DNA of 12,451 nt from an uncultured Leptospiraceae bacterium (GTDB taxonomy: Bacteria > Spirochaetota > Leptospiria > Leptospirales > Leptonemataceae): contig CAZGYS010000114.1 in the NCBI GenBank assembly GCA_964530305.1, positions 598 through 13,048 of the forward strand. Reading direction: 5' to 3'. Both the position numbers and the translations under genes were made by a program. Shown here piece after piece: positions 1 through 12,451 of this stretch (its first letter is position 1; each line of letters starts with the position of its first letter). The notes below the pieces were generated by a model. It ran no database searches. It was not told the origin of the DNA and was given only the letters and a program-made list of their open reading frames with translations.

Positions 1-2075
1 AACTCTCGTATTCTAGTAAATCTAAAATGACTACCACCTGGCGCGTCACCGGGACGGTGGTGGATCGGGGCGGACGCGTCGGCTCCTCCGTTAAGAAGTT
101 TCTTTCCACCAAGGAATTAACGGCGCGATTGGCCGTGCCCCGTTATTTGAACACGGGCTCCACCGGTCGCGCGTCGGGCATCGTGCGCAATCTTACGCGT
201 AAGCCCATGACCGTCATCGCGCAGTTCCGCGCCAGGGGCGGCCTCAAGCTGGGCAAGCCGGGCGATTCCACGTCCAGCTTCGCGCGCAGCCAGACCTTTC
301 GCGCTACCCTGCAACCCGGTCGTCGAGCCAGCTTCACCGTGAGCGTGTTTTCGCGTACGGAAAATCGCAACGCGAAGATTCAGTTCTTCGCGCGCACCAC
401 CGACGGCAAATACAAGGACAGCCTGGAGAAGAAACTCCCGGTCTATGAAACCGGCCTGACCCACACCCTGGCCTCCAACGACAGCCTGCTCCACGGCAAG
501 GGTCCGGGCGGCAGCAAGGTCATTCGCCTGGAAGGCGATGTACTGCGCCTCGGGAAAGACAAGATCAAGCCGGTGAAATACGAAGTCGTGGTCTACCCCA
601 ATCTCATGGGTTCGGTGCTGGGTTCGCTGGAATACCTGCTCGAGTATCCCCACGGTTGCGTGGAGCAAACCACCAGTCGCTTTTTGCCCAATATCGAAGT
701 GCTGCGCTTCTTGAAGGAGAACGGCATTCGCAATCGCCGTCTGGAAGGCAAGCTTCAGCAAAACATCCAGGGCGGCATTAATAATCTGCTTGAATTGCAA
801 AACCCGAAACGCGGCGGCTGGGGCTGGTGGCGAAGTCGCGGCGGTTACGCCGTGAATCACTGGATGACGGCCTATGCTCTCTATGGTCTCGTCACGGCCA
901 AGAACGCCGGGTTCGACGTGGACCAGGCCAAGCTCAAGAAGGGCCTGGATGCGCTGTATAAAATCATGTACGCGACGGGCGGGGATCGCACCAGCGAACT
1001 GGACGAGCGGGACTATCCCATCAAGGAAAGCTTCGTCGTCTTCGCCAACTATATCCTGACGTCCGCCGGCCGGGGAGAGCCCAGCATCACGGACGCCATC
1101 ACCGTTCTGCAACAGCGCTCGAATCTCGAAGCCCTGGGCTGGGCGGCGCGAGCGCTGGTGCTGGAAGGACGCTGGAAGGATCTGGCGGAACTCCGTAATG
1201 TTATCCTGCGCCAGGCCATTAACTTTCGCTTCCTGCAAGAAGACGTGAACGGCCCCAACACCAGCCAGACTTACTACACGGCCATCGCCCTGGGCGGCAT
1301 CTTCGCCGGTTCGCGCTGGTCAAAAGGCGATTCCATCGAGTTCATCAAGAGCCTGCTGGCCAATCGCTCGGCGGATGGTAAGTTCATTTCCACCCGGGAG
1401 ACGGCGGCGTCCATTCTGACCATGCTGAATTTCCTGCGGGCCAATAAGCAGTACATGCGGCCCAACATGAACGTCACCCTGAAGCTGCCGGACGGTAAGA
1501 CGCGCAAGATTACCATCAATCGCCGCAGCTCCGTATTCAAACCCACGGTGGTGCCCATCGCCCTGTCCGGTTTCGACCCTTCCAATCCGCGCGTGCGCGT
1601 TACCTGGAGCGGCACGGGCCTGGCGCAGGTTTATCTGCGCGCGAAGGTCTTCGAAAAGACGAAGGAATTCAAACCGCGCGACAACGGCATCAGCGTGGAG
1701 CGCAAGTACGTGCCCGAGGGCGCCGACCCCAATCGCGTTAAGTTTTCCGGCATCGTTTCCCAGGGAGACGCGCTGGACGTGATCATTCGCGTGAAGATCA
1801 ACTCGGGCGGCAACTACCTGGCGGTCACCGAATACATTCCGGCCGGCTTCCAACTGGTATCCAGTTTCGATTACTCGTCCGGTCGCACGAACGTTGTCGT
1901 GAAGAAGGACCGTATTCACTTCTACGTGGAGAACTACAGCGGCGTGGAGACGATTCGCTATCGCCTCCGGGCGGTGAACCCGGGTCACTACCTGGTGCAA
2001 CCGGCCAAGGCCGAACTCATGTATCGGGACACCATCAATGGTTCGTCTCGCGCCGAGGTCCTGAAAGTCAACTGA
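1..2075 (+). CDS. Alpha-2-macroglobulin (A2M) family protein, C-terminal portion. It covers a bait-like linker, an MG/CUB-like segment, the thioester domain and a receptor-binding-like C-terminus. The reading frame is open back to window position 3, so the 5' end is probably outside the window. The first in-window ATG is at 27.
   Basis: The translation contains LLEYPHGCVEQTTSRFLPNIEVLRFL. This closely matches the A2M thioester region consensus (P-x-GCGEQ-NM...PNIYVLDYL), and the GCVEQ thioester motif sits at nt 654-668. Downstream there is a Trp/Gly-rich alpha-toroid-like segment (GGWGWW...YALYGLVTA) and a C-terminal beta domain (YLAVTEYIPAGFQLV), as expected for TED plus the receptor-binding/MG8 domain. 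Only about 210 aa precede the thioester, whereas full A2Ms have over 1000 aa of MG domains there, so the protein is probably truncated by the window. The stop codon TGA (2073-2075) overlaps the next ATG. Confidence 0.8.
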   Translation, partial: LSYSSKSKMTTTWRVTGTVVDRGGRVGSSVKKFLSTKELTARLAVPRYLNTGSTGRASGIVRNLTRKPMTVIAQFRARGGLKLGKPGDSTSSFARSQTFRATLQPGRRASFTVSVFSRTENRNAKIQFFARTTDGKYKDSLEKKLPVYETGLTHTLASNDSLLHGKGPGGSKVIRLEGDVLRLGKDKIKPVKYEVVVYPNLMGSVLGSLEYLLEYPHGCVEQTTSRFLPNIEVLRFLKENGIRNRRLEGKLQQNIQGGINNLLELQNPKRGGWGWWRSRGGYAVNHWMTAYALYGLVTAKNAGFDVDQAKLKKGLDALYKIMYATGGDRTSELDERDYPIKESFVVFANYILTSAGRGEPSITDAITVLQQRSNLEALGWAARALVLEGRWKDLAELRNVILRQAINFRFLQEDVNGPNTSQTYYTAIALGGIFAGSRWSKGDSIEFIKSLLANRSADGKFISTRETAASILTMLNFLRANKQYMRPNMNVTLKLPDGKTRKITINRRSSVFKPTVVPIALSGFDPSNPRVRVTWSGTGLAQVYLRAKVFEKTKEFKPRDNGISVERKYVPEGADPNRVKFSGIVSQGDALDVIIRVKINSGGNYLAVTEYIPAGFQLVSSFDYSSGRTNVVVKKDRIHFYVENYSGVETIRYRLRAVNPGHYLVQPAKAELMYRDTINGSSRAEVLKVN
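654..668 (+). other. Thioester site motif GCVEQ of the A2M-family protein. The Cys and Gln would form the reactive beta-cysteinyl-gamma-glutamyl thioester.
   Basis: The codons ggt tgc gtg gag caa at 654-668, read in the ORF frame, give G-C-V-E-Q. The flanking residues match the conserved A2M/C3 thioester context. Confidence 0.7.
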
Positions 2076-2917
2076 TGAGCCGGCATCTCCAATACAGACG
2101 GGCACCCGGCGTCGATCGGTTCGCGGCCATGTGCGCTTGCGCGATTTTCGCGGCCGTACTGGCCGCTTCCTGCGCCACGTCGACCGCCGCCTCTTCGACG
2201 CCGAGCAGTGCTTCGAGCGCGCTGAAGGTCAAGACGTCCGCGCAACTCGTACGCGAAGACAGCCAGCGAGCGGCCGCGGGCAAGGTAATCGCCCGACACA
2301 AGCTGCTGATTACGGCTTATGAATTCGGCGTGACGCGCAACGTGGACGTGGCCGCGCAAAAGCTGAACTACTTTCTGCTGCCTCCCGGCGCGTCCTTTTC
2401 CCTGAACAAGCACCTGGGTAAGCGCACCCCGGACAAGGGTTATAAGAAAGCCCCGGTATATGCGGGCGCGGGGGCGCGTATCAAGGACTTCGGCGGCGGC
2501 CTGTGCATGGTCTCCTCGGTTCTATACAATATTTTTCTACGGGGCGGTCTGGAGATTCTGGAACGCCATCCCCATCGTAAGATTGTGAAATACGTTCCCG
2601 CGGGACTGGACTCGGCGGTGGACTGGGGCAGCAAGGACCTGCGCGTGCGCAACAACCAGCCCCATGCCCTGGTCATTCGCGTCTACCGCGAAGGCAAAAT
2701 CGTACATGGGGAACTCATGGGACCCGCGGGTCCCGCCCATGAAATCGAAATCAAACGCCATCTGTCCCGGGCCATCATTCCGGGCGTTTTGCAAAACGGC
2801 TTTCGCGTCCGAACCACGCGAACCTTCTTCGAACCCGGCGGGGAATTACTCCGAGAAGAAATTCTCTCGGAGGATACTTTCCTGCCCATCAACTACCAGG
2901 GAGCACCCGCTCAATGA
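2075..2917 (+). CDS. VanW-domain protein (VanW/YoaR-like, peptidoglycan-associated protein of unknown biochemical function). It has an N-terminal signal peptide and is possibly a lipoprotein.
   Basis: The 280-aa ORF carries the diagnostic VanW motif block KDFGGGLCMVSSVLYNIF...ERHPHRKIVKYVPAGLDSAVDWGSKDLRVRNNQPHALVI. The VanW consensus is GGGxCQVSTTLYNA...ERHNH...Y...G.DATV, so the match is close. The N-terminus has a basic n-region, a hydrophobic stretch (FAAMCACAIFAAVLAAS) and a Cys. The start overlaps the upstream stop (TGATG), and the stop overlaps the next start (ATGA), which indicates translational coupling. Confidence 0.8.
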   Translation: MSRHLQYRRAPGVDRFAAMCACAIFAAVLAASCATSTAASSTPSSASSALKVKTSAQLVREDSQRAAAGKVIARHKLLITAYEFGVTRNVDVAAQKLNYFLLPPGASFSLNKHLGKRTPDKGYKKAPVYAGAGARIKDFGGGLCMVSSVLYNIFLRGGLEILERHPHRKIVKYVPAGLDSAVDWGSKDLRVRNNQPHALVIRVYREGKIVHGELMGPAGPAHEIEIKRHLSRAIIPGVLQNGFRVRTTRTFFEPGGELLREEILSEDTFLPINYQGAPAQ

Positions 2918-3873
2918 AATCGCATCTTAAATTCACGGCACCGGCAACGGCCGCCCTGACCCTCGCGGCGGCGCTGACCCTGCTCGGGGGATTTTCGGAC
3001 GGACCCCGGGCCCAGGCTTCGTCGACGCGCTACGTTACGGCGAAGTACGGCCTGCGCATGAGGTCCAGGCCTTCCCTGCGTGGGAAACGCGTCGCCACCA
3101 TTCCCGCGAAGGCGCAAGTCTACCTGATAAGGGAGTACGGTCGCACGCAAGTCATGAGCGGAAAGCGCGGTCGCTGGTCCTACGTGCGCTGGAATAAGCG
3201 CGCGGGCTGGGTCTTCGGAGGCTTCTTGAGTCGCCTGCGCCCCGGCGCGAAGGCCGGCATGCCCCGCATCACGATTCTCTCCCCGGGCAGCGGCTGGACG
3301 GCTAAAAAGATCGTCGTAGTAAAAGGGATGATTGAAAGCTCGGAGCCCGTGCGCGAAGCGCGATTTACCCAGAACGGGATCTCGCGCAGCATTCCCGTGA
3401 ACTCGGGACGCTTCTCGCAAAAGATTGTCCTGGGCTCCGGCGCGAACTACATCAAGATCGAAGCCACGAACGCGGGCGGCACTTCGGCGGCGGCGCTGAA
3501 ACTGGTTACGAACAACAGCCCCATGGACATGAAGGTGGTGCTCTCGTGGGATACGAACAACACCGACGTGGATCTGTGGGTTACCGATCCCAACAATGAA
3601 AAGGTTTCCTACCGGAACAAGCGCTCGAAGATAGGCGGGCAACTGGACGTAGACATCACCTCGGGCTACGGCCCCGAGACCTTCACCCTGGCCCGCGCCC
3701 TCCCCGGCGAATACCTGGTTCAGGTTCAGTATTACGGCGGCGCGCGTCCTACGATGGCCCGCGTGCTGGTCGTGCTCTATGAAGGCACCCCGAAAGAAAA
3801 ACGCCTGACCTTTCCCGCGCTTCTGCATAAACGCGGCAGCGGCATCACCATCGGCCGCTTCAAGGTGGACTAA
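2914..3873 (+). CDS. Secreted protein with three parts: an N-terminal bacterial SH3-like (SH3b) domain, an Ig-like beta-sandwich and a C-terminal YfaP-like (DUF2135-like) domain.
   Basis: The signal peptide is MKSHLKFTAPATAALTLAAALTLLGG...AQA. The segment YVTAKYGLRMRSRPSLRGKRVATIPAKAQVYLIREYG...WSYVRWNKRAGWVFGGFL has the SH3b signature (Y-V-x-a-xxLNVRSGPS...G-x-V...WxxV...G-x-GWV). The C-terminal block VLSWDTNNTDVDLWVTDPNNEKVSYRN...GGQLDVDITSGYGPETFTLARALPGEYLVQVQYYGG resembles, from memory, the conserved core of the YfaP/DUF2135 domain that is linked to A2M loci. There is a GGGAG 14 nt upstream of the ATG, and the ATGA overlap with the VanW gene indicates coupling. Confidence 0.7.
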   Translation: MKSHLKFTAPATAALTLAAALTLLGGFSDGPRAQASSTRYVTAKYGLRMRSRPSLRGKRVATIPAKAQVYLIREYGRTQVMSGKRGRWSYVRWNKRAGWVFGGFLSRLRPGAKAGMPRITILSPGSGWTAKKIVVVKGMIESSEPVREARFTQNGISRSIPVNSGRFSQKIVLGSGANYIKIEATNAGGTSAAALKLVTNNSPMDMKVVLSWDTNNTDVDLWVTDPNNEKVSYRNKRSKIGGQLDVDITSGYGPETFTLARALPGEYLVQVQYYGGARPTMARVLVVLYEGTPKEKRLTFPALLHKRGSGITIGRFKVD

Positions 3874-3895
3874 TCAAAATTTCCGGACAATACAC

Positions 3896-4651
3896 ATGAA
3901 GAAAAACGGCAAAATACTCTCCCTCATTCTCGCGGCGGGCATGCTCGCGGTCGTCCCCTGGTCCGAAACCGAGGCCACCAGCTTGACGACGGTCATTCGT
4001 AAAGTTAAGCGCGGCGATCGCAATGCCCTGACCAGTATCAGCTCGCGCGATTTTACGCGCCTGCATAATTACCGCGGCAAGTACTACTATATACCGCGCT
4101 TCATCGGCAAGAAGGCCGTGCGGAGCCTGTTCGGATGCTTCCGAAATCCGGACCGCGAAGTGCGGCGACTGTGCGCGGACAATCTCTACCAGTTCAAACT
4201 CACCTACGTGCACAAGAAACTGATTTTGTATTATATGCAAAAGGAAACCCACAAGCCGACGCGACTGGCCCTCCAGGACCTCATGATTCGCATCGATGAG
4301 GAACGCTTCGCGGAAGCCCGGCGCCTGGGAGACCGGAACTTCCTCACCAAGATTGATTTCGACCACATCCAGCCTTTTACGGAAAAGGGTTACCCCTCCG
4401 GCGGAGCCTACACCGACCGGGACATTCGCTTTTTGCGGGGCGGCCTGGGTAATAAGGACTATCGCATGCGGGTTTACGTCATTCGGATGATGGGACGCGT
4501 GCGCGGCGCCGACGCCACGCTCCTGCGCGTGCTGGCCATCCGGAAGAAACGCGAGTCCAACACCTCGGTTCGGCGCGCCATCGACGAATCCATTCGCTGC
4601 ATTCGCTCGCCCCGGTCCTGCCCGGACCTCTACGGCCCCTCGGATCAATAA
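3896..4651 (+). CDS. Secreted hypothetical protein with HEAT/PBS-lyase-like alpha-helical repeats.
   Basis: The 251-aa ORF starts 23 nt after the previous stop, in the same orientation. Its signal peptide is MKKNGKILSLILAAGMLAVVPWSETEA. It has repeated D/N-x-x-VRR-x-(A/C)-x-x-(L/I) segments (DREVRRLCADNL, DYRMRVYVIRMMGRV, NTSVRRAIDESI) typical of HEAT-like repeats. There is no recognisable catalytic motif. Codon usage is consistent with the neighbouring genes. Confidence 0.55.
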   Translation: MKKNGKILSLILAAGMLAVVPWSETEATSLTTVIRKVKRGDRNALTSISSRDFTRLHNYRGKYYYIPRFIGKKAVRSLFGCFRNPDREVRRLCADNLYQFKLTYVHKKLILYYMQKETHKPTRLALQDLMIRIDEERFAEARRLGDRNFLTKIDFDHIQPFTEKGYPSGGAYTDRDIRFLRGGLGNKDYRMRVYVIRMMGRVRGADATLLRVLAIRKKRESNTSVRRAIDESIRCIRSPRSCPDLYGPSDQ

Positions 4652-4671
4652 TATTCGAACACTATATGGTT

Positions 4672-4704
4672 CGCCGTCGTCTAAATTTATAAATGCCGGC
4701 GGCG
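4672..4704 (+). terminator. Stem-loop 21 nt downstream of the HEAT-protein stop codon. The stem is GC-rich and 10 bp long (one mismatch, one G-U pair), and it encloses the AT palindrome ATTTATAAAT. It could be an operon-end terminator or a protein-binding site.
   Basis: CGCCGTCGTC (4672-4681) pairs with GCCGGCGGCG (4695-4704). The loop is TAAATTTATAAAT, which contains the perfect palindrome ATTTATAAAT. On the + strand it is followed by an A-rich rather than a U-rich tract, so intrinsic-terminator character is weak. Confidence 0.25.
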
Positions 4705-4774
4705 ATCCAAAAAGTACTTGTCTATCATCGTGCTTTCGACATCCTTCCAGCCGCGGGCATTGGGGGCACATTCC

Positions 4775-4794
4775 CGGAACGTTACAGCGTTCCG
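4775..4794 (+). promoter_or_regulatory. Perfect inverted repeat CGGAACG-N6-CGTTCCG in the long intergenic region. It is a candidate operator or protein-binding palindrome, or a small hairpin.
   Basis: CGGAACG (4775-4781), spacer TTACAG, then CGTTCCG (4788-4794). The arms are exact reverse complements. There is no downstream U-tract. Confidence 0.25.
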
Positions 4795-4929
4795 CCGCAT
4801 GCGTGCTCCCGAGTTTTCACGACATAAACCATTAAGCGGTGGCGGACGATTTTCGCATTGCGATTGATTCGTTCGTCGTAGCCGTGCATAGTTTACCCTC
4901 ACGAACCTTTATCGGTTCGCGCGGGGTTA

Positions 4930-4959
4930 GCGGCGTATTTCGCGTCGCATGGTTTTTTT
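4930..4959 (+). terminator. Weak candidate intrinsic terminator: a short GC hairpin followed by a T7 tract.
   Basis: GCGGCG (4930-4935) pairs with CGTCGC (4943-4948) using one G-U pair, around the loop TATTTCG. ATGG and then TTTTTTT (4953-4959) follow. The stem is short, and there is a 4-nt gap before the T-tract. Confidence 0.2.
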
Positions 4960-4979: not shown

Positions 4980-5007
4980 ACGTATTTAATATATACGAAA
5001 CGTATTC
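4980..5007 (+). promoter_or_regulatory. Direct repeat ACGTATT ... ACGTATT spaced 20 bp apart (two helical turns). The copies flank TAATATATACGAA. This is a candidate transcription-factor site or AT-rich promoter element.
   Basis: ACGTATT occurs at 4980-4986 and at 5000-5006. The intervening sequence is strongly AT-rich (TTAATATATACGA), and it lies about 110 nt upstream of the yqiJ-like start. Confidence 0.2.
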
Positions 5008-5112: not shown

Positions 5113-5856
5113 ATGCCGCCCATCATAGCCGAATCCATCAAACTGGTTAACCTTCCTTATACCATCTTCCTGGGAGTCATCATCATCTTCTGGCTCACCG
5201 TCATGCTCGGCGCGCTGGACATGGAATCCCTGGACGTGGACGCGGATGTCGACGCCGATGTTGATCTCGACCTCGACGTGGATATGGACGTGGACGCAGA
5301 CTTCGATGCCGATATCGACGCGGACGTGGACGCCGACCTGGATACGGATCTGGATGCCGACGCCGGCATGGGCGGCGGCGCGCTGGGCAGTTTCTGGGCC
5401 GCCTTGAACCTGGGCGCCGTGCCCCTATCCGTCTGGCTTTCCATCTTCGGAATCCTGTGCTGGTTCCTGTCCGTCAGCGGCAACATCATCGTGGACGGCA
5501 CGGTCCTCAAGAGCATTCATAACTTCTTTCGCCTGGTGCTGGGCAGTCTGTTGATCATTCCCCTGGCCGCGTTCATTACGCGTTTCGCCGTAATACCCCT
5601 GCGCCCGGTGTTTCGCATTCCGGACCCCAAGGACAATAAGGACTACGTCCGGGACATCTGCAAGATTACGTCATCAAAAGTGACGCCGACCTTCGGCATG
5701 GCGGAAATTCCCACGGACGCATCGCCCCTGCTCGTCAATGTTCGCGCCCGCGAAGAAGAGGGTCTGACCAAGGGCGACAAGGCGATGATCCTGCGTTATC
5801 ATAAAGATAAAAATTATTACGATGTAACCCGCTTCGAACACGAGAGCCTGAACTAG
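5113..5856 (+). CDS. YqiJ/NfeD-like inner-membrane protein (flotillin-associated). It has three predicted transmembrane helices and a C-terminal OB-fold-like beta domain. A 44-residue alternating Asp-X tract sits between TM1 and TM2.
   Basis: The 247-aa ORF has hydrophobic helices at about aa 14-35, 92-120 and 138-162. The C-terminal soluble segment (TFGMAEIPTDASPLLVNVRAREEEGLTKGDKAMILRYHKDKNYYDV) resembles the NfeD/YqiJ C-terminal beta-barrel, including a TKGDK-hydrophobic motif that I recall from E. coli YqiJ. It lies immediately upstream of a flotillin gene, which is the canonical nfeD/yqiJ position. An AAGGGAG RBS-like element is present upstream. Confidence 0.75.
   Translation: MPPIIAESIKLVNLPYTIFLGVIIIFWLTVMLGALDMESLDVDADVDADVDLDLDVDMDVDADFDADIDADVDADLDTDLDADAGMGGGALGSFWAALNLGAVPLSVWLSIFGILCWFLSVSGNIIVDGTVLKSIHNFFRLVLGSLLIIPLAAFITRFAVIPLRPVFRIPDPKDNKDYVRDICKITSSKVTPTFGMAEIPTDASPLLVNVRAREEEGLTKGDKAMILRYHKDKNYYDVTRFEHESLN
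5233..5361 (+). repeat. In-frame imperfect hexanucleotide tandem repeat (GAY-NNN), about 22 units. It encodes the strictly alternating dipeptide tract DVDADVDADVDLDLDVDMDVDADFDADIDADVDADLDTDLDAD.
   Basis: Direct reading of 5233-5361 shows Asp codons (GAC/GAT) at every second codon. The intervening codons encode V/A/L/M/F/I/T. The period is 6 nt and the frame is never broken. Confidence 0.85.
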
Positions 5857-5868
5857 CGGGCTACCGCT

Positions 5869-5895
5869 TCGCGCGGACATCGCCGCACCGCGCGA
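5869..5895 (+). other. GC-rich intercistronic stem-loop between the yqiJ-like gene and the flotillin gene. The stem is 8 bp and the loop 11 nt. It could be a partial terminator, an attenuator or an mRNA-stability element.
   Basis: TCGCGCGG (5869-5876) pairs perfectly with CCGCGCGA (5888-5895). It sits 13 nt after the TAG stop at 5854-5856. It is followed by CCTCTTCATG and has no clean U-tract. The flotillin RBS AAGGAGA lies about 40 nt downstream. Confidence 0.3.
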
Positions 5896-5951
5896 CCTCT
5901 TCATGATTGAAGAGCACCTACTCGGCGAATTTACGAAGGAGAAATGAATAG

Positions 5952-8036
5952 ATGAAGGAAATACTGGATCTTTTAACCAGCGGATTGATTGGCCTGTCGG
6001 TACTGGTAATCTTTTTGCTGATTGGCATAGTCTTTTTGCTGACCCGCTTTCTGGCCAAGGTGGAGCCGGGCAAGGCATTGATCATCATCAGTCCTTTCAA
6101 GGGCATGAAGGTATCATTCACCGGCGCGCTGGTATTTCCTTTAATTCATAGAATGGAGATCATGGACATCTCCACCAAGATGATTACCGTGGAAAGGCGG
6201 GGCAAGGACGGCCTGATCTGCAAGGACAACATGCGGGCCGACATATCGGTGAACTTCTACCTGCGCGTAAATCCCACGCGGGAAGACGTCACCCAGGTCG
6301 GCCAGAGTATCGGTGTGGCGCGTGCCTCAACGCGGGAGACGCTGGACTCCCTCTTTCAAGCTAAATTCTCCGAAGCCCTCAAGACCGTGGGTAAACAGAT
6401 GGACTTCGAGGATCTGTTCATGGAGAGAACAAGTTTCAAGGAGCAAATCGTAGAGAGCATCGGAGATAACCTGAACGGCTACAGCCTGGAAGATACGGCC
6501 ATCGACTATCTGGAGCAAACGCCCCTCGAGGAACTGGATGAAAACAACATCATGGACGCGGAAGGTATTCGCAAGATTACCGAAATCACGCTGACCAAAA
6601 AGGAAGTCGTCGAGAAGCGCACCACGGAAACCCGCGAGCGCATCCTGGAGCTGGAAAAACAGCGCAAGGAAGCGGAAGCCAAGCAGAAAAGTGAAATCAT
6701 GATCATCGAAGCCAAGGAAGAGGCCGAAGCCAAACGCGTACAGGAAGAAGAACGCCTGAAGGCCGAATCCGCGCGCATTGCATCGGACGAAAGCATCTCC
6801 GTGGGCGAAGTCAACATGGCTCGTCAGATCGAAGTGGCGGAGAAAAACAAGGAACGGGAAGTCGCCGTGGAAACCGAGCGCGTTGAAAAAGACCGCGCCC
6901 TGGAAGCCACCGACCGCGAAAAGCTCGTGGCCCTGGCCACCATCGAGAAAGACCGCGTGGTGGAAGCCGAGCGCAAGAACATCGCCGATATCGTGCGTCA
7001 ACGCGTGGCCGTGGAAAGAACCGTGGCCGAAGAAGAAGAGACCACGAAGAATACCCGCGCCTTCGCCGGAGCCGACCGGGACAAGCGCGTGGCCATCACC
7101 CACGCCGAAAAGGAAGCCGAGGAAAAACTGGTACTTGAAATCAAGTCCGCCGAAGCACGCGAAAAAGCGGCCGCTCACTTGGCGCGGGAAAAAGAAATCA
7201 ACGCGGACGTGGAGTTCTCCACCGCTTCCAAGCACGCCGACGCCAAGAAGACCCTGGCCGAGGGTATCATCGCCGAGGAAAGCGCCGAGGGCCTGGCCAA
7301 AGTCAAGGTCAAGCAGGCCGACGCCGACGCCATCCGCCGCGTAGGCGAAGCCGAGGCCAAGGCCAAGGAATTCGACTACGAAGTGGAAGCCAAGGGCATC
7401 AAGGAGAAGGGCCTGGCGGAAGTAAACGTCCGCAACGCCAACGCGGAAGTCACCGAACGCATCGGCCAGGCGGAAGCCGAATCCAAGCGCTTCATGTACG
7501 ACGTGGAAGCTCAAGGCATCGAGAAAAAAGCGGAAGCCATGAAAAACTACGACGGCGTGGGCCGCGAACACGAGGAATACAAACTGCAACTGGCCCTGCG
7601 CGAAAAGCTGGAGCTGGAGCGCATCGGCGTGAACAAGGACATCGCCATTGCGCGGGCGGAAGTCCTGGGAACCGCGTTGGAGAACGCGAAGATCGACATC
7701 GTGGGCGGGGACGGACAGTTCTTCGACAAGATCGTCGGGGCCGTTTCCGACGGACGCTCCGCGTCGGCCTTCATGAAGAACAACGAGCCTTTGACCGAAG
7801 TCAAGGACGCCCTGCTGGCCTCCGGGGACGACAATTTGTTGAATCGCATCAAGACCCTGGCCGATCACACCGGCATCTCGGCGGAGAGCGTGAAGGATCT
7901 CACCATCGCCGCGGTGCTCACCAAAATGGCCGTGGCCACGGACGACGGTTGGGTCAAGGAACAAGTCAATTCCCTCTCCGCCATGGCGGACAAGGTCGGC
8001 CTGAGCGATATGAAGCTCGGAAAACTGATGGGTTGA
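5952..8036 (+). CDS. Flotillin-like SPFH/band-7 family protein (YqiK/FloT-like). It has an N-terminal membrane anchor, an SPFH domain and a long Glu/Ala/Lys-rich coiled-coil flotillin tail.
   Basis: The 694-aa ORF begins with a transmembrane helix (LIGLSVLVIFLLIGIVFLLTRFL). The SPFH core is PGKALIIISPFKGMKVSFTGALVFPLIHRMEIMDISTKMITVERRGKDGLICKDNMRADISVNFYLRVNPTREDVTQV. It is followed by about 450 aa of EAxxK/ExxER heptad-like repeats, which are typical of bacterial flotillins. A strong SD (AAGGAGA) lies 11 nt upstream of the ATG. The gene follows a yqiJ/nfeD-like gene, as in known flotillin operons. Confidence 0.9.
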   Translation: MKEILDLLTSGLIGLSVLVIFLLIGIVFLLTRFLAKVEPGKALIIISPFKGMKVSFTGALVFPLIHRMEIMDISTKMITVERRGKDGLICKDNMRADISVNFYLRVNPTREDVTQVGQSIGVARASTRETLDSLFQAKFSEALKTVGKQMDFEDLFMERTSFKEQIVESIGDNLNGYSLEDTAIDYLEQTPLEELDENNIMDAEGIRKITEITLTKKEVVEKRTTETRERILELEKQRKEAEAKQKSEIMIIEAKEEAEAKRVQEEERLKAESARIASDESISVGEVNMARQIEVAEKNKEREVAVETERVEKDRALEATDREKLVALATIEKDRVVEAERKNIADIVRQRVAVERTVAEEEETTKNTRAFAGADRDKRVAITHAEKEAEEKLVLEIKSAEAREKAAAHLAREKEINADVEFSTASKHADAKKTLAEGIIAEESAEGLAKVKVKQADADAIRRVGEAEAKAKEFDYEVEAKGIKEKGLAEVNVRNANAEVTERIGQAEAESKRFMYDVEAQGIEKKAEAMKNYDGVGREHEEYKLQLALREKLELERIGVNKDIAIARAEVLGTALENAKIDIVGGDGQFFDKIVGAVSDGRSASAFMKNNEPLTEVKDALLASGDDNLLNRIKTLADHTGISAESVKDLTIAAVLTKMAVATDDGWVKEQVNSLSAMADKVGLSDMKLGKLMG

Positions 8037-8037
8037 C

Positions 8038-11000
8038 ATGGCCGAGGAAACTTCCACGACAATCGCGGACGAAGAAGTCGGACCGGGCGAAAGCCCGGCC
8101 GGCGAAGGCTCCCAGGGCGGCGGCGCCCTTGAGGGTGGTTCCTATGAGATCATTCGCAATCGCCTTTCCAAAATAGGCGATGAACTCCTGGAGCGCATCA
8201 ACCAGCTCAACGGCCGACGCAAGGAAGTCTTCGGCGCGCTGGACAATCGCCTGGTGGGGCAGGAGCAGATCCTCACCGACACCAATTGCGTCCCCATCGA
8301 CATGAAGTCGCTGGGCGGCAATCGCTTGATTTTCGGTTATCGCGTCTATTTAGGTTTGAAGACGACGCCGAAGATCTCGGATGTCTTCAGCCTGTATGAA
8401 TTCAAGGACGATAAATTCGAACCGGCACCCGCGGATTTTCTGGAGACGCCGGCCTTCGTCCGCGATTTCAACGACCTCTTTAACTATTATAAGAACTCCC
8501 GGTTCGTAACCTTTCATAAGGACGAATCGCGCCTGCTGATGGTTTTCCAGGTGGGCAAGGAAAGCGAGGACATTCGTGCCTTCAAGTGGCTCCTGAACGG
8601 GGACAATACCCTGACCTACGTAAACAATCGCGCCGAGCGCGAATACGTTTACCCGCCCCAGCACGAATTCGAATGGAAGCGAGCCACGCGGGATCAACAG
8701 ATCTACGGCACGCACCCGCACATCTCCATCGAGGACAAGGTTTTCGTGGAGTGTACCGGCGGCGATTTAACCATCAAGGTCGAGAACAATACCGATTCCG
8801 GCGCCGGCATTTATCGCGAGGACGTGGAACACAAGGACCAGACGCTGGACGACGCGGAAGTTCACTACGCCGTTCTGGATCACGTGGTACTTTTGCGCAT
8901 CAAGCCCTTTCGCGAAAAGGACTACCGCTATATTATTTTTAATGAGAAGACCGAAAAGGCCGTGCGGGTGGACGACATCGAGCAGAGCGCCATTCGTCTG
9001 CCCGAGGACGACGGTCTGATCTTTCCCCGGGGTTACTATCTGGAGAGCGGCGAATATAAGCGCTTCGAGCTGGAGATTCCCTCCATGCAGTATCGCAAGC
9101 TCTTGCCCTCGTCAAACGGCGAAGACTTCCTGTACGTTTTCTTCAACGCCGACCTGGGCGAATACATTCTGCTGCAATACAATCTAATCGAAAAGAAAGT
9201 CGAAAACCCCATCTACTGCCACGGCTTCGCGCTCTACGAAGACGGCAAGATGATCTTCTTCAAGGGCGATGAGCAGGCCAAGAAGAATCACGGCATTCAA
9301 ATCTGGCAAACGCCCTTCGTCAGCGACAAGCACATGCAACTGGCCGTGAAGGACGATTCGGAACTGAATCGCATCGGTAACAAGGAGCTGGTGCGGGGCA
9401 TAGCGGATTTGCGTTCCGTGTTGAATCTGTTGCGCACGGAAAAAGTCTACCTGGGTCTTTATCATCAAATCGCCCGCAAGGTTACCAATACGCTGGACTT
9501 CCATCACTGGATGGGATCCGACCAGGTCTTTAATCCGAAGGAAGTCCTGCAACGCGCGGGCGAAACCGCCAAGGGCGCGCTGGAAGAGTACGAAAAAGTC
9601 GTGCAAATTCGCGCGAACACCGAGAACGCCGTGAAGGCCGCCTCGAGTCGCATGGAAAAACTGGAGCTGGAGCTGGGCGGCCGTCGCTTCGAACAGATCG
9701 AGCAGTACGTGGAAACCCTGGCGGATCTGCGCATGGAGCGCGGCAAGATCATTTCCCTGAAAGAATTGCGCTACGTCGACGCGAACAAGGTCGACGAGCT
9801 GGAAGCCATCGCCGTAAGGCTGCACGACGTGACCGCCCATGGGTGCGTGGAGTTTCTGTTAAAACCCGAGGCGCTCACGCCCTTCATGGACAAACTCAAG
9901 GACTACGAGGGGCAAATCACGGAGCTGGAGAAAGTGGCCCAGTTGCGCGAACTGGGTGAGAAAATCGCCCAGGTAAACGAGAGCGCCAACCTGCTGACCG
10001 AGATGGTCAACAACCTGGAGATCGACGACGCCACTCAGACCACGAACATCATCAACAACATCTCGAATGTTTATACGCGCATCAACCAGGTCAAGGCCGC
10101 GCACAAGAAACACACCCATTCCCTGCACGCCCAGGAGTCCAAGGAAGAGTTCGCCGCGCAGTTCAAGCTCATCAGCCAGACCGTGGCCACCTTCCTGGAT
10201 CAAGCCGATTCGCCCGAACGCTGCGAAGAGCTTCTGACGCGGGTTCTCGTTCAACTGGAGGAACTGGAAGCACGCTTCGCCGATTTCGACGAGTACATCG
10301 AGGAGCTTTCGCGCAAGCGCGAGGAGATCTACAGCGCCTTCAATTCGCGCAAGGTGCAACTGGAAGAAGGTCGCAACAAGCGCAGCGCCACGCTATGGAA
10401 ATCCGCGGAGCGCATCCTCAAGGGCGTATCCAATCGCATGTCCCAGTTGAAGGGCATCGACGAACTAAACGCCTACTTCGCGGGAGACGCCATGATCACC
10501 CGCGTGCGGGACATCGTTGAGAAACTGGCGGAGATGGGAGATCAGGTGAAGTCCGAGGACATCGCCGGTCGCCTCAAGAGCCTCAAACAAGAAGGCGCGC
10601 GTCAGTTAAAAGACAAGCTGGACCTCTTCGCCGACGGCGCGGACGTCATCAGTCTGGGTCGCCATAAGTTTCTGATCAATACCCAGTCCGCGGAACTGAC
10701 CACCGTCAATCGCGACGGAGAAATGTGCTTTCATTTAACGGGCACGGAATTCTTCGAACCCATTCAAGACGAAAGCTTCGAAGCCACCCGACCGTTCTGG
10801 GAACAGGAGCTGCCTTCGGAGACGTCGGAGATCTATCGCGCCGAATACCTGGCGTACAAGATTATCCGCTCCGTGCGTGAGGAAGGCACGCCCCTTTCGG
10901 AAAAGGAACTCCACGACATCACCCGGGACCTGGACCGCGAATTTCACAACGCCGAACCCAACGAACTCCAGGAAGCCCCGGACTTTCAGAAACTACTGGA

Positions 11001-12451
11001 AGCCGTACGATCCTTCATGGCCGGGCGCTATTCCGAGGGATATGAAAAAGGCGTGCACGATCTGGATTGCGCGCGCCTGCTGACGGCCCTCTACCCCGTG
11101 TACGCCCGCGCGGGCGCATTGCGATTCGCGCCGGATACGCGCGCTTATGGATATTTGTACTGGCGCCACGCGGAGCACACCGAGGCCAAGGAGTTGCTGG
11201 GTCGCAAGATTCGCTCCTATGGCCTTCTGGGCGAACTGACTCCCACGGCCAACGCTCATCCCGTTTACGTCGAGCAATTGAACGAGATGGTCGCCGCCTG
11301 GTTCGAGGACCAGGGCATTCCCGCGAAACCGGGGGCCCTGCGCCACACGGCGGACTACCTATTCGAGGAACTCAAGGCGGGCCGCGGCGACGCCATGGGC
11401 GGCGCGAAGGGCACCGGCCACATGTTTCCCATCAACGGGCAGGCCTATGATATCTACATGGCCTTTCGCGATTTTCTCAAGTCGAAGAAATCCATTCGCC
11501 GTTTCAATGAAGCCGTGAAGAGCATCGGTCCGGGAGCGGGAGGACGCCTGTCCATCATTCAGGACTGGGTGGGAGCTTTCGTGGATGCCCACGAGGAGAT
11601 GAATTCGGACTTCGTCCTGGAAACCTCCATGGCCGTGCTCGACGAAACGCTGGACGATAAACTGGACGGCGATCTGGATTCCGGACTCGTCGTGAAAATC
11701 GACACAACCTGCACGGCACGAGGCATGATGGGGCGTCACCCGCGCATCGAAGACGGCAACCTCAGCGTGGACGTGGCCGACTTCCTGATGCGACTCGACG
11801 AATTCGAGACCGAGAGCGTACCGCGCTACCGCGATTACACGCAACTCAAGCACGACCTTACCGAAAAACAAAAAGACGTCATGCGTCTGGACGAATTCAA
11901 GCCGCGCATCATGAGCGCCTTCGTGCGTAACAAACTCATCGATACGGCCTACCTGCCCCTCATCGGCGCGAACCTGGCCAAGCAGATGGGTTCCTACGGC
12001 GATCAAAAACGCACGGACCTCATGGGCCTGTTGATGCTGATTTCGCCGCCCGGTTACGGCAAGACGACCTTGATGGAGTACATCGCCAATCGCCTGGGGC
12101 TGATCTTCATGAAGATCAACGGTCCGGCTCTCGGCCACAATGTCGTGTCCCTGGATCCGCAGGAGGCGCCCAACGCCACCGCGCGCGAAGAGGTGAACAA
12201 ACTCAACCTGGCGCTGGAGATGGGCAACAACGTCATGATCTACCTGGACGACATCCAGCACACGCACCCGGAGTTTCTTCAAAAGTTTATTTACCTCTGT
12301 GACGCGCAGCGCAAGATCGAGGGTGTCTATCGCGGACGCACGCGAACCTACGACCTGCGGGGCAAGCGCGTCTCGGTGGTCATGGCCGGCAACCCGTATA
12401 CGGAAAGCGGCGAAAAGTTCCAGGTCCCCGATATGCTGGCCAACCGGGCCG
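8038..12451 (+). CDS. Giant multidomain protein, 3'-partial, with at least 1471 aa in the window. It has an N-terminal beta-rich region (about aa 1-480), a central coiled-coil region of about 370 aa, an alpha/beta middle region and a C-terminal AAA+ ATPase domain. Its architecture is reminiscent of the large proteins annotated as 'DNA repair ATPase' (DUF3686 plus AAA), but I have not verified this.
   Basis: ATG 8038 lies 1 nt after the flotillin TGA (8034-8036). Frame 1 has no stop from 8038 to the window end. I translated it myself. The ORF track omits it because it lacks an in-window stop. Every other + strand ORF listed in this span is in a different frame and is R/P-rich junk. The translation is protein-like throughout and begins MAEETSTTIADEEV...GGSYEIIRNRLSKIGDELLERINQL. 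It has heptad-rich segments (EKLELELGGRRFEQIEQYVETLADLRMERGK, VLVQLEELEARFADFDEYIEELSRKREEIYSAF). It ends with an AAA+ core: Walker A LISPPGYGKTTLMEY (nt 12043-12069 encode SPPGYGKTT), Walker B VMIYLDDIQH (YLDD at 12241-12252), sensor-1 VVMAGNPY (12376-12393), then PDMLANRA at the window edge. Confidence 0.8.
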   Translation, partial: MAEETSTTIADEEVGPGESPAGEGSQGGGALEGGSYEIIRNRLSKIGDELLERINQLNGRRKEVFGALDNRLVGQEQILTDTNCVPIDMKSLGGNRLIFGYRVYLGLKTTPKISDVFSLYEFKDDKFEPAPADFLETPAFVRDFNDLFNYYKNSRFVTFHKDESRLLMVFQVGKESEDIRAFKWLLNGDNTLTYVNNRAEREYVYPPQHEFEWKRATRDQQIYGTHPHISIEDKVFVECTGGDLTIKVENNTDSGAGIYREDVEHKDQTLDDAEVHYAVLDHVVLLRIKPFREKDYRYIIFNEKTEKAVRVDDIEQSAIRLPEDDGLIFPRGYYLESGEYKRFELEIPSMQYRKLLPSSNGEDFLYVFFNADLGEYILLQYNLIEKKVENPIYCHGFALYEDGKMIFFKGDEQAKKNHGIQIWQTPFVSDKHMQLAVKDDSELNRIGNKELVRGIADLRSVLNLLRTEKVYLGLYHQIARKVTNTLDFHHWMGSDQVFNPKEVLQRAGETAKGALEEYEKVVQIRANTENAVKAASSRMEKLELELGGRRFEQIEQYVETLADLRMERGKIISLKELRYVDANKVDELEAIAVRLHDVTAHGCVEFLLKPEALTPFMDKLKDYEGQITELEKVAQLRELGEKIAQVNESANLLTEMVNNLEIDDATQTTNIINNISNVYTRINQVKAAHKKHTHSLHAQESKEEFAAQFKLISQTVATFLDQADSPERCEELLTRVLVQLEELEARFADFDEYIEELSRKREEIYSAFNSRKVQLEEGRNKRSATLWKSAERILKGVSNRMSQLKGIDELNAYFAGDAMITRVRDIVEKLAEMGDQVKSEDIAGRLKSLKQEGARQLKDKLDLFADGADVISLGRHKFLINTQSAELTTVNRDGEMCFHLTGTEFFEPIQDESFEATRPFWEQELPSETSEIYRAEYLAYKIIRSVREEGTPLSEKELHDITRDLDREFHNAEPNELQEAPDFQKLLEAVRSFMAGRYSEGYEKGVHDLDCARLLTALYPVYARAGALRFAPDTRAYGYLYWRHAEHTEAKELLGRKIRSYGLLGELTPTANAHPVYVEQLNEMVAAWFEDQGIPAKPGALRHTADYLFEELKAGRGDAMGGAKGTGHMFPINGQAYDIYMAFRDFLKSKKSIRRFNEAVKSIGPGAGGRLSIIQDWVGAFVDAHEEMNSDFVLETSMAVLDETLDDKLDGDLDSGLVVKIDTTCTARGMMGRHPRIEDGNLSVDVADFLMRLDEFETESVPRYRDYTQLKHDLTEKQKDVMRLDEFKPRIMSAFVRNKLIDTAYLPLIGANLAKQMGSYGDQKRTDLMGLLMLISPPGYGKTTLMEYIANRLGLIFMKINGPALGHNVVSLDPQEAPNATAREEVNKLNLALEMGNNVMIYLDDIQHTHPEFLQKFIYLCDAQRKIEGVYRGRTRTYDLRGKRVSVVMAGNPYTESGEKFQVPDMLANRA
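11900..12451 (+). other. AAA+ ATPase domain (truncated by the window end) at the C-terminus of the giant ORF.
   Basis: The P-loop GYGKTT, a hydrophobic run followed by DD (Walker B), and an Asn-containing sensor-1 (AGN) appear in the canonical order and spacing (about 65 aa from Walker A to B, about 45 aa from B to sensor-1). The Walker A variant SPPGYGKT differs from the usual GPPGTGKT. Confidence 0.7.

Follow-up and report, generated by a model that had tools for sequence, protein, structure and literature searches.

Why a giant ATPase should be encoded directly behind a bacterial flotillin is the question raised by the locus described here. The stretch of DNA that was analyzed (12,451 nucleotides, below called the window) comes from an uncultured Leptospiraceae bacterium (GenBank assembly GCA_964530305.1, contig CAZGYS010000114.1, positions 598 to 13,048). 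Three co-directional genes on the plus strand occupy positions 5113-12451: gene A encodes a membrane protein, gene B a flotillin, and gene C a giant ATPase of the AAA+ class that runs past the end of the window. An earlier note on this sequence had presented the trio as a candidate uncharacterised membrane-microdomain machine. We find that the operon belongs to a type known from comparative genomics and is not a new kind of system. From architecture and gene context we infer, on balance, that C most likely uses ATP to remodel a cytoplasmic assembly of the flotillin and the YqiJ-type protein as part of membrane-stress maintenance.

Gene neighbourhood of the flotillin and the ATPase

Ravi et al. 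(2024, mSystems, PMC11237479; preprint 2020) described an operon composed of a CesT/Tir-PspA pair, a YqiJ/YuaF protein, a Band-7/flotillin protein and an AAA+ protein with a beta-propeller and a coiled coil. The same authors reported an 'abbreviated' form without PspA, described as 'more widely distributed' and as a possible partner of PspA from another locus, and they interpreted the system in terms of sub-membrane assembly or remodelling (PMC11237479). The window has the features of this operon, with a YqiJ/YuaF-type protein of three transmembrane segments, a flotillin and the giant ATPase lying adjacent and co-directional, and it agrees with the published operon in the three proteins, their domain architectures, their order and their strand. 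It represents the abbreviated form. In contrast to the full form, neither the CesT/Tir-PspA dyad nor an XRE regulator adjoins the trio in the window, which ends inside C, and the upstream region is occupied by a terminator and an unrelated operon for alpha-2-macroglobulin (A2M), VanW and SH3 proteins. The example from Dokdonia donghaensis (ANH61663.1) in Table S3 of that paper has the same arrangement as the Bacteroidota loci collected here. Relative to Bacteroidota copies, proteins B and C of the window are about 45% identical and A is 25-30% identical. A view of the trio as undescribed is not supported, since the operon including its PspA-less form was already in the literature (PMC11237479).

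Two other papers touch on parts of the locus. Popp et al. 2022 (PMC9239133) found PspA beside band-7/FloT and NfeD genes, and Hinderhofer et al. 2009 (PMC2636767) defined a two-gene SPFH2-NfeD operon; neither paper mentions the ATPase. Literature searches with the names DUF3686, PF12458 and DUF7902, or with 'DNA repair ATPase' combined with flotillin, returned no papers beyond that of Ravi et al. In the literature searched it is still true, as stated earlier, that the trio has no characterized function.

Among the two-gene units yqiJ-yqiK of E. coli and yuaF-floT of B. subtilis, the proteins YqiJ and YqiK are homologues of A and B, and the trio shows the same order and a tight coupling of these two genes. 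There is no third gene in E. coli, where yqiK is followed by sibD/ibsD, whereas the unit in the window continues into C. Protein B is also about 140 amino acids (aa) longer than YqiK, with a conserved C-terminal domain that lies beyond the aligned region.

Synteny of the giant open reading frame (ORF) with SPFH genes, which the earlier note had named as its own test, was examined in a set of 84 loci analyzed by tblastn and ORF calling, 66 of which had more than 3.2 kb of sequence upstream of C. A homologue of B was located upstream of C on the same strand in 63 of these 66 loci, distributed over about ten phyla, and a detectable A homologue preceded B in 56 of 61. All three loci that were reached from the flotillin side had C immediately downstream. 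Clustering of flanking ORFs gave no conserved genes downstream of C. At three loci (L013, L045 and L063) neither a flotillin nor a YqiJ homologue could be detected within 7-8 kb upstream of the giant ATPase.

The full trio occurs on the Pseudomonas fluorescens plasmid pQBR103. The flotillin and C, placed after a small protein that could not be identified as A by tblastn, are found on a Streptomyces linear plasmid, a Deinococcus megaplasmid and the Proteus mirabilis chromosome. The nearest relatives of the window proteins come from uncultured Spirochaetota-like metagenome-assembled genomes (59-73% identity).

Across the loci it is A and B that are tightly coupled: the gap between them has a median of 13 nucleotides (nt), and 4-nt overlaps are common; the gap in the window is 95 nt. 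In the window, as the earlier note had it, the TGA stop of B (8034-8036) is followed one base on by the ATG of C at 8038, and the 1471 codons from there to the window end contain no stop. No terminator-like sites were seen between A, B and C on the coding strand. The variable small genes that lie between flotillin and ATPase in Bacteroidota encode DMP19, DUF3997, PH_40, DUF6141-like and small transmembrane proteins.

Relatives of C are numerous. More than 4,900 were found among clusters at 90% identity, with lengths of 1,610-1,980 aa and about 45-59% identity to the window copy, and they belong to Spirochaetota, Planctomycetota, Bacteroidota, Verrucomicrobiota, Desulfobacterota and other phyla. 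At 50% identity the propeller domain of C matched 677 clusters among 1.84 billion representatives, and nearly all of the matches listed had the propeller at the N-terminus. This small number of clusters, together with an identity of about 45% across phyla, points to a slowly evolving cellular machine under strong purifying selection.

The trio is joined to PspA in two operon types and in two phyla, Bacteroidota and Pseudomonadota. A PspA_IM30 protein (140.9 bits) is encoded near the trio in 16 Bacteroidota loci (among them L012, L015, L018, L020 and L025), and in 15 of the 16 its gene is on the same strand just upstream of A. A divergent XRE-type helix-turn-helix regulator and a CesT/YbjN-like protein are encoded upstream in 14 of the 16; in L012 the module of regulator, CesT/YbjN-like protein and PspA lies at positions 2456-4924. 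The second type is that of pQBR103 (L085, record positions 85112-97641), where a complete yjf-type PspA operon encoding PspA, a rhomboid protease, DUF2491, DUF350 and DUF1190 proteins and a glutathionylspermidine synthase is located directly upstream of the trio. Because PspA is linked to the trio in both lineages, a role in membrane stress or membrane repair is the one best supported by context, which agrees with one of the options proposed earlier. pQBR103 itself is a 425-kb environmental megaplasmid of P. fluorescens SBW25 and thus provides a transferable copy of the yjf-type PspA/polyamine operon combined with the trio.

Domain architecture of the three proteins

Gene A could be assigned through its relatives. 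A family profile built from an alignment of 45 syntenic homologues aligned with E. coli YqiJ over nearly its whole length (hhalign probability 96.8%, E 2.7e-10), and the soluble domain of YuaF (2k14) gave a marginal match to the same profile (E 0.08). The Pfam model YqiJ_N was matched by 18 of the 45 homologues and the NfeD C-terminal domain by six; the window copy had no Pfam match of its own. With three hydrophobic segments in addition, the earlier description of A as YqiJ/NfeD-like is supported. The first hydrophobic segment is followed by an acidic repeat, and its D-x-D pattern is kept in the family consensus.

Protein B is a flotillin of the YqiK type, as had been proposed. Its Band_7 match scored 30.2 bits against a cut-off of 23.6 (aa 36-181), and E. 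coli YqiK aligned to the B family profile over 393 columns covering the SPFH and coiled-coil regions (hhalign probability 100%, E 6e-40). Homologues are named 'flotillin family protein' or 'YqiK' in the databases. The Pfam Flot model did not match B, a sequence search of the PDB with B gave no match, and a profile search of the PDB gave only a weak match to the coiled coil of QmcA. The strong AT skew of positions 6549-7631 is caused by the Glu/Ala/Lys-rich composition of B in this region. At its C-terminus B has a conserved domain (aa 561-694) on which C may dock.

Protein C is predicted to be soluble, with no transmembrane or hydrophobic segments in a Kyte-Doolittle scan. Since full-length homologues measure 1610-1980 aa, the window lacks about 140-500 C-terminal residues. 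Pfam matches were DUF3686 (591 bits, aa 49-490), DUF7902 (aa 611-692) and a weak AAA match (aa 1333-1407). The tentative remark in the earlier note that 'DNA repair ATPase' genes with DUF3686 and AAA domains adjoin flotillin genes proved correct by Pfam and synteny. In an AlphaFold2 model of aa 1-700 (predicted local distance difference test score, pLDDT, 85.5) the N-terminus is disordered; a single long helix, about 27 strands (aa 71-424) and, from aa 442 onward, helical hairpins make up the rest. The strands are predicted to form a beta-propeller of about seven blades. A Foldseek search with this N-terminal model gave 122 PDB matches at E<=1e-3, and those listed were mostly WD40-type or other beta-propeller proteins. 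In the modelled part of the helical region that follows (aa 442-699), helical hairpins and three-helix, spectrin-like bundles are predicted.

For the C-terminal half, the corresponding part of the closest full-length homologue was modelled (P0001, AlphaFold2, pLDDT 79.8) and mapped to the window via the P-loop offset. In this model a small beta domain precedes an all-helical domain of about 270 aa, and a single AAA+ module comes last. The earlier description of C was thus right about the beta-rich N-terminus, the AAA+ domain and the combination of DUF3686 with AAA. Its coiled coil of about 370 aa is to be replaced by a helical region of about 420 aa (about aa 442-865), and between this region and the AAA+ module it had missed the small beta domain and the all-helical domain. 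For these two intervening domains no known relative was found in our searches.

Foldseek placed the AAA+ module near RuvB, MCM, the MoxR-type proteins NorQ/CbbQ, and ClpB, with probabilities up to 1.0 and E-values of only about 2e-3; the C-terminal model thus has an AAA+ fold but no close relative in this search. A PDB sequence search with a full-length C homologue gave no match, and a profile search of the PDB with C matched only the P-loop stretch, the similarity to p97/NVL being confined to about 35 residues around the P-loop. In comparison with the classical AAA clade, the model of C has a hairpin before sensor-1, and its best fold matches (RuvB, MCM, MoxR) are all weak (E about 2e-3). Based on the model, we read the hairpin KIEGVYRGRTRTYDLR as a probable pre-sensor-1 hairpin. 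By their positions in the sequence Asn1452 would be sensor-1 and Arg1470 the arginine finger. The AAA+ lid lies beyond the window end and is present in homologues. The atypical P-loop SPPGYGKT pointed out earlier is indeed present and invariant in 14-35 homologues; compared with the GxxxxGK[ST] consensus it has Ser at the first Gly position and retains Gly-Lys-Thr. Where pore loop 1 would be expected, the sequence NGPAxGHxVxSLDPxEAPNA is almost invariant and contains no aromatic residue.

Two homologues of C deserve separate mention. The copy from Desulfobacterales HSG16 (P0026, locus L005) has extra ankyrin repeats according to precomputed Pfam domains, which suggests lineage-specific recruitment of a partner. 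A full-length homologue of 1711 aa with 48% identity is present in a eukaryotic protein set (P0030, eukprot g33011.t1) and could reflect contamination or horizontal transfer.

Proposed function and competing explanations

NfeD partners nucleate or anchor the oligomers of SPFH proteins. By this precedent A would nucleate or anchor a large B oligomer at the cytoplasmic face of the inner membrane. C would form an AAA+ ring that docks on the flotillin assembly with its propeller and helical arms, and would spend ATP to assemble, remodel or dismantle this assembly under membrane stress. It would probably cooperate with an ESCRT-III-like PspA polymer encoded elsewhere, much as Vps4 does with ESCRT-III. 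Since B, and not PspA, is the near-obligate neighbour of C, the direct partner of C is more likely to be the flotillin/YqiJ assembly. In a more specific picture, offered tentatively and considered unlikely, C would be the motor of an unrecognized bacterial machine for membrane remodelling: a hexameric AAA+ ring with propeller and spectrin-like arms would dock on the apex of a cytoplasmic flotillin dome, where it would open, close or recycle this dome or else a polymer of the PspA/ESCRT-III type recruited to it. Flotillins would thereby gain an energy-dependent cycle that is undescribed in any organism.

Two known systems provide analogies for this reading. Like the trio, HflK/C-FtsH combines an SPFH scaffold with an AAA+ ATPase, and it serves as the working analogy for cooperation between the B assembly and C. 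FtsH, however, is membrane-embedded and carries an M41 protease, whereas C is soluble, has no protease match in Pfam and falls into an AAA+ lineage of its own that is unclassified. HflK/C forms its cage in the periplasm (PMC2636767), while for the B assembly a cytoplasmic location is presumed. The second analogy is with ESCRT-III/Vps4 and the AAA+ ATPases associated with PspA: here too an AAA+ enzyme has a genetic link to a polymer system bound to the membrane, as shown for the trio by its linkage with PspA in two lineages. C differs in that no MIT domain was detected by Pfam, in its single divergent AAA+ module with a predicted pre-sensor-1 hairpin, and in that its constant partner is flotillin and not PspA.

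Several observations weigh against a remodeller of the flotillin assembly. The spacing between B and C is loose (median 123 nt; no more than 10 nt in only two of 71 loci), and in Bacteroidota unrelated small genes often intervene. The earlier argument that the 1-nt junction implies co-translation and a physical complex therefore does not generalize; the junction was rejected as a conserved coupling signal and is local to the window. PspA is not encoded within the window, where the approximately 5 kb upstream belong to the A2M/VanW operon and the sequence ends inside C, and most loci outside the Bacteroidota have no PspA nearby, so that the PspA link may be accessory. The Walker B motif of C has Asp-Asp where Asp-Glu is usual, a substitution that could make ATP turnover slow or regulatory, not mechanical. 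The pore-loop region is conserved yet has no aromatic residue of the usual kind, and on this sequence feature C would seem to fit a remodeller less well than a classical unfoldase would. Published experiments on any member of the family were not found in the literature.

The same neighbourhood could be explained if the flotillin/YqiJ assembly corrals damaged or unassembled membrane proteins and C acts on these clients as an unfoldase or extractor, like FtsH in the HflK/C cage and with no built-in protease. SPFH cages are known to partner with AAA+ proteases, and a staphylococcal flotillin is reported to stabilize unfolded proteins (PMC13220708, PMC11222466). The propeller of C is a typical substrate- or adaptor-binding module attached to an AAA+ ring fold, and the synteny of B and C fits such client processing equally well. 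We nevertheless consider it unlikely. C has no protease domain in Pfam and none is conserved in its neighbourhood, and the lack of an aromatic residue in the pore-loop region speaks against it as well; the present data do not separate client from scaffold as the target of C. A membrane coat is an improbable alternative, in which C, whose propeller is followed by long helical repeats, would polymerize on flotillin patches and bend or pinch the membrane while its AAA+ module recycles the coat. The Foldseek matches of the N-terminal model do include the terminal domain and linker of the clathrin heavy chain, Vps18 and IFT-A, but with low TM-scores (0.13-0.21), and any WD40-type propeller matches as well. 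The helical part of C resembles generic three-helix bundles and not an alpha-solenoid. Its linkage to PspA, a relative of ESCRT-III, and the abundance of the family in Planctomycetota, Verrucomicrobiota and Lentisphaerota would suit a coat, but Bacteroidota, Myxococcota and Actinomycetota, phyla that are not noted for internal membranes, carry the family just as commonly.

Two further explanations take C away from membrane maintenance. Phage defence had been offered as an option in the earlier note; an anti-phage or abortive-infection system of this sort would detect infection at the membrane, and the ATPase would be its sensor or effector. Large multi-domain nucleoside triphosphatases such as C are common in defence systems, the distribution of the family is patchy, and some copies reside on megaplasmids (pQBR103, Streptomyces linear plasmids). 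On a scan with PADLOC-DB 2.0, however, A and B had no match and C had only two weak partial ones, to a cyclase (E 5e-5, 67 aa) and to mad8 (E 1e-3). The searches gave no homologue in phages and matches in just 13 of 72,556 plasmid records, several of them replicons of 1.7-12 Mb that are likely chromids or mislabelled chromosomes. The loci share no conserved defence neighbours, the divergence described above is very low for a conflict gene, C has no toxic effector domain in Pfam, and no paper linking flotillin and AAA proteins to defence was found. We regard a defence function as highly improbable. Almost no credence can be given to a DNA repair ATPase as the database name would have it. This name goes back only to how Pfam describes DUF3686 and to labels taken over from there, with a weak similarity to RuvB at the level of the P-loop as the other point in favour; that similarity is confined to the generic AAA+ core, which is common to p97, MCM, MoxR and ClpB. 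Pfam and NCBIfam reveal no DNA-binding, nuclease or helicase accessory domain, the constant partners of C are two membrane proteins, and no supporting literature was found.

Bacterial flotillins are usually seen as passive scaffolds, and we know of no account of how flotillin assemblies are built or taken apart. A giant, highly conserved ATPase that adjoins a flotillin in about 95% of the loci examined, from about ten phyla, is an obvious candidate for the energy-driven step and for a link with PspA-based membrane repair. The locus reinforces a defined, uncharacterized system and corrects the misleading 'DNA repair ATPase' label; our analysis contributes counts of synteny, models of structure, arguments against a role in defence or DNA repair, and candidate hosts for genetics, among them Proteus mirabilis and P. 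fluorescens SBW25/pQBR103.

Feature coordinates and surroundings of the cassette

Table 1. Features of the window, with positions in nucleotides and the basis of each assignment.
Feature	Position	Strand	Basis or remark
Truncated bacterial alpha-2-macroglobulin (A2M/TED/bMG10)	to 2075	+	Pfam
VanW-domain protein	2075-2917	+	Pfam
SH3_3/Glucodextran_B/DUF2135 protein	2914-3873	+	Pfam
251-aa protein, signal peptide, weak HEAT match	3896-4651	+	
Terminator-like hairpin and T-run	4930-4958	+	Ends the preceding unrelated operon; upstream boundary of the cassette
Imperfect AT-rich palindrome ACGTATTTAATATATACGAAACGT	4980-5003	.	About 110 nt upstream of gene A
Gene A, YqiJ/YuaF (NfeD-type) inner-membrane protein, 247 aa	5113-5856	+	ATG ORF
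A, first hydrophobic (transmembrane) segment, aa 17-35	5161-5217	+	Kyte-Doolittle scan
A, acidic D-x repeat, aa 36-85	5218-5367	+	23 Asp in 50 residues
A, second and third hydrophobic segments, about aa 98-156	5404-5580	+	Three-transmembrane topology, Kyte-Doolittle scan
A, C-terminal soluble NfeD/YuaF-like (OB-type) domain, about aa 165-247	5605-5853	+	Alignment to YqiJ C-terminal part and YuaF 2k14; NfeD Pfam in homologues
Gene B, YqiK-type flotillin (SPFH2), 694 aa	5952-8036	+	
B, single N-terminal transmembrane anchor, aa 12-30	5985-6041	+	Kyte-Doolittle scan
B, SPFH/Band_7 domain, aa 36-181	6057-6494	+	Pfam
B, Glu/Ala/Lys-rich coiled-coil ('flotillin') region, about 360 aa, about aa 200-560	6549-7631	+	
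B, conserved C-terminal domain, aa 561-694, motif IDIVGG..FFD	7632-8033	+	Conservation; outside the YqiK alignment
Gene C, soluble, beta-propeller, helical repeats and AAA+, at least 1471 aa	8038-12451	+	3' end missing
C, DUF3686, predicted beta-propeller of about seven blades, aa 49-490	8182-9507	+	Strands aa 71-424
C, helical region, about aa 442-865	9361-10632	+	AlphaFold2, Pfam; DUF7902 at aa 611-692 (nt 9868-10113)
C, small beta domain (about aa 873-911), then all-helical middle domain and long connecting helix	10645-11907	+	AlphaFold2 model
C, AAA+ alpha/beta core	11920-12450	+	Pfam AAA, AAA_5, RuvB_N; window ends just past the putative arginine finger
C, Walker A SPPGYGKT, aa 1336-1343	12043-12066	+	Invariant in 14-35 homologues
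C, Walker B MIYLDD, aa 1400-1405	12235-12252	+	Invariant across aligned homologues
C, beta-hairpin before the sensor-1 strand, KIEGVYRGRTRTYDLR, aa 1426-1441	12313-12360	+	Model strands 570-575 and 578-583
C, putative sensor-1 Asn1452 (VMAGNP) to putative arginine finger Arg1470 (LANRA)	12391-12447	+	Both residues invariant

Every credible gene of the window is on the plus strand, with a GC content at third codon positions (GC3) of 0.70-0.78 for the ORFs of this strand and of 0.75-0.76 for genes A, B and C. Long minus-strand ORFs at 3860-4771, 2911-3828 and 6327-8057 were rejected as artefacts of GC composition, with a mirror-image GC3 pattern. A scan of the sequence upstream of A for the sigma-70 consensus gave no promoter-like site, and an Rfam scan of the window found no RNA. 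The palindrome upstream of A is a candidate operator or promoter element and could be the operator for a stress regulator.

Positions 1-4651 are occupied by an unrelated operon of overlapping genes for secreted proteins on the plus strand. Its alpha-2-macroglobulin is partnered with VanW instead of a PBP1c-type gene, which is possibly noteworthy.

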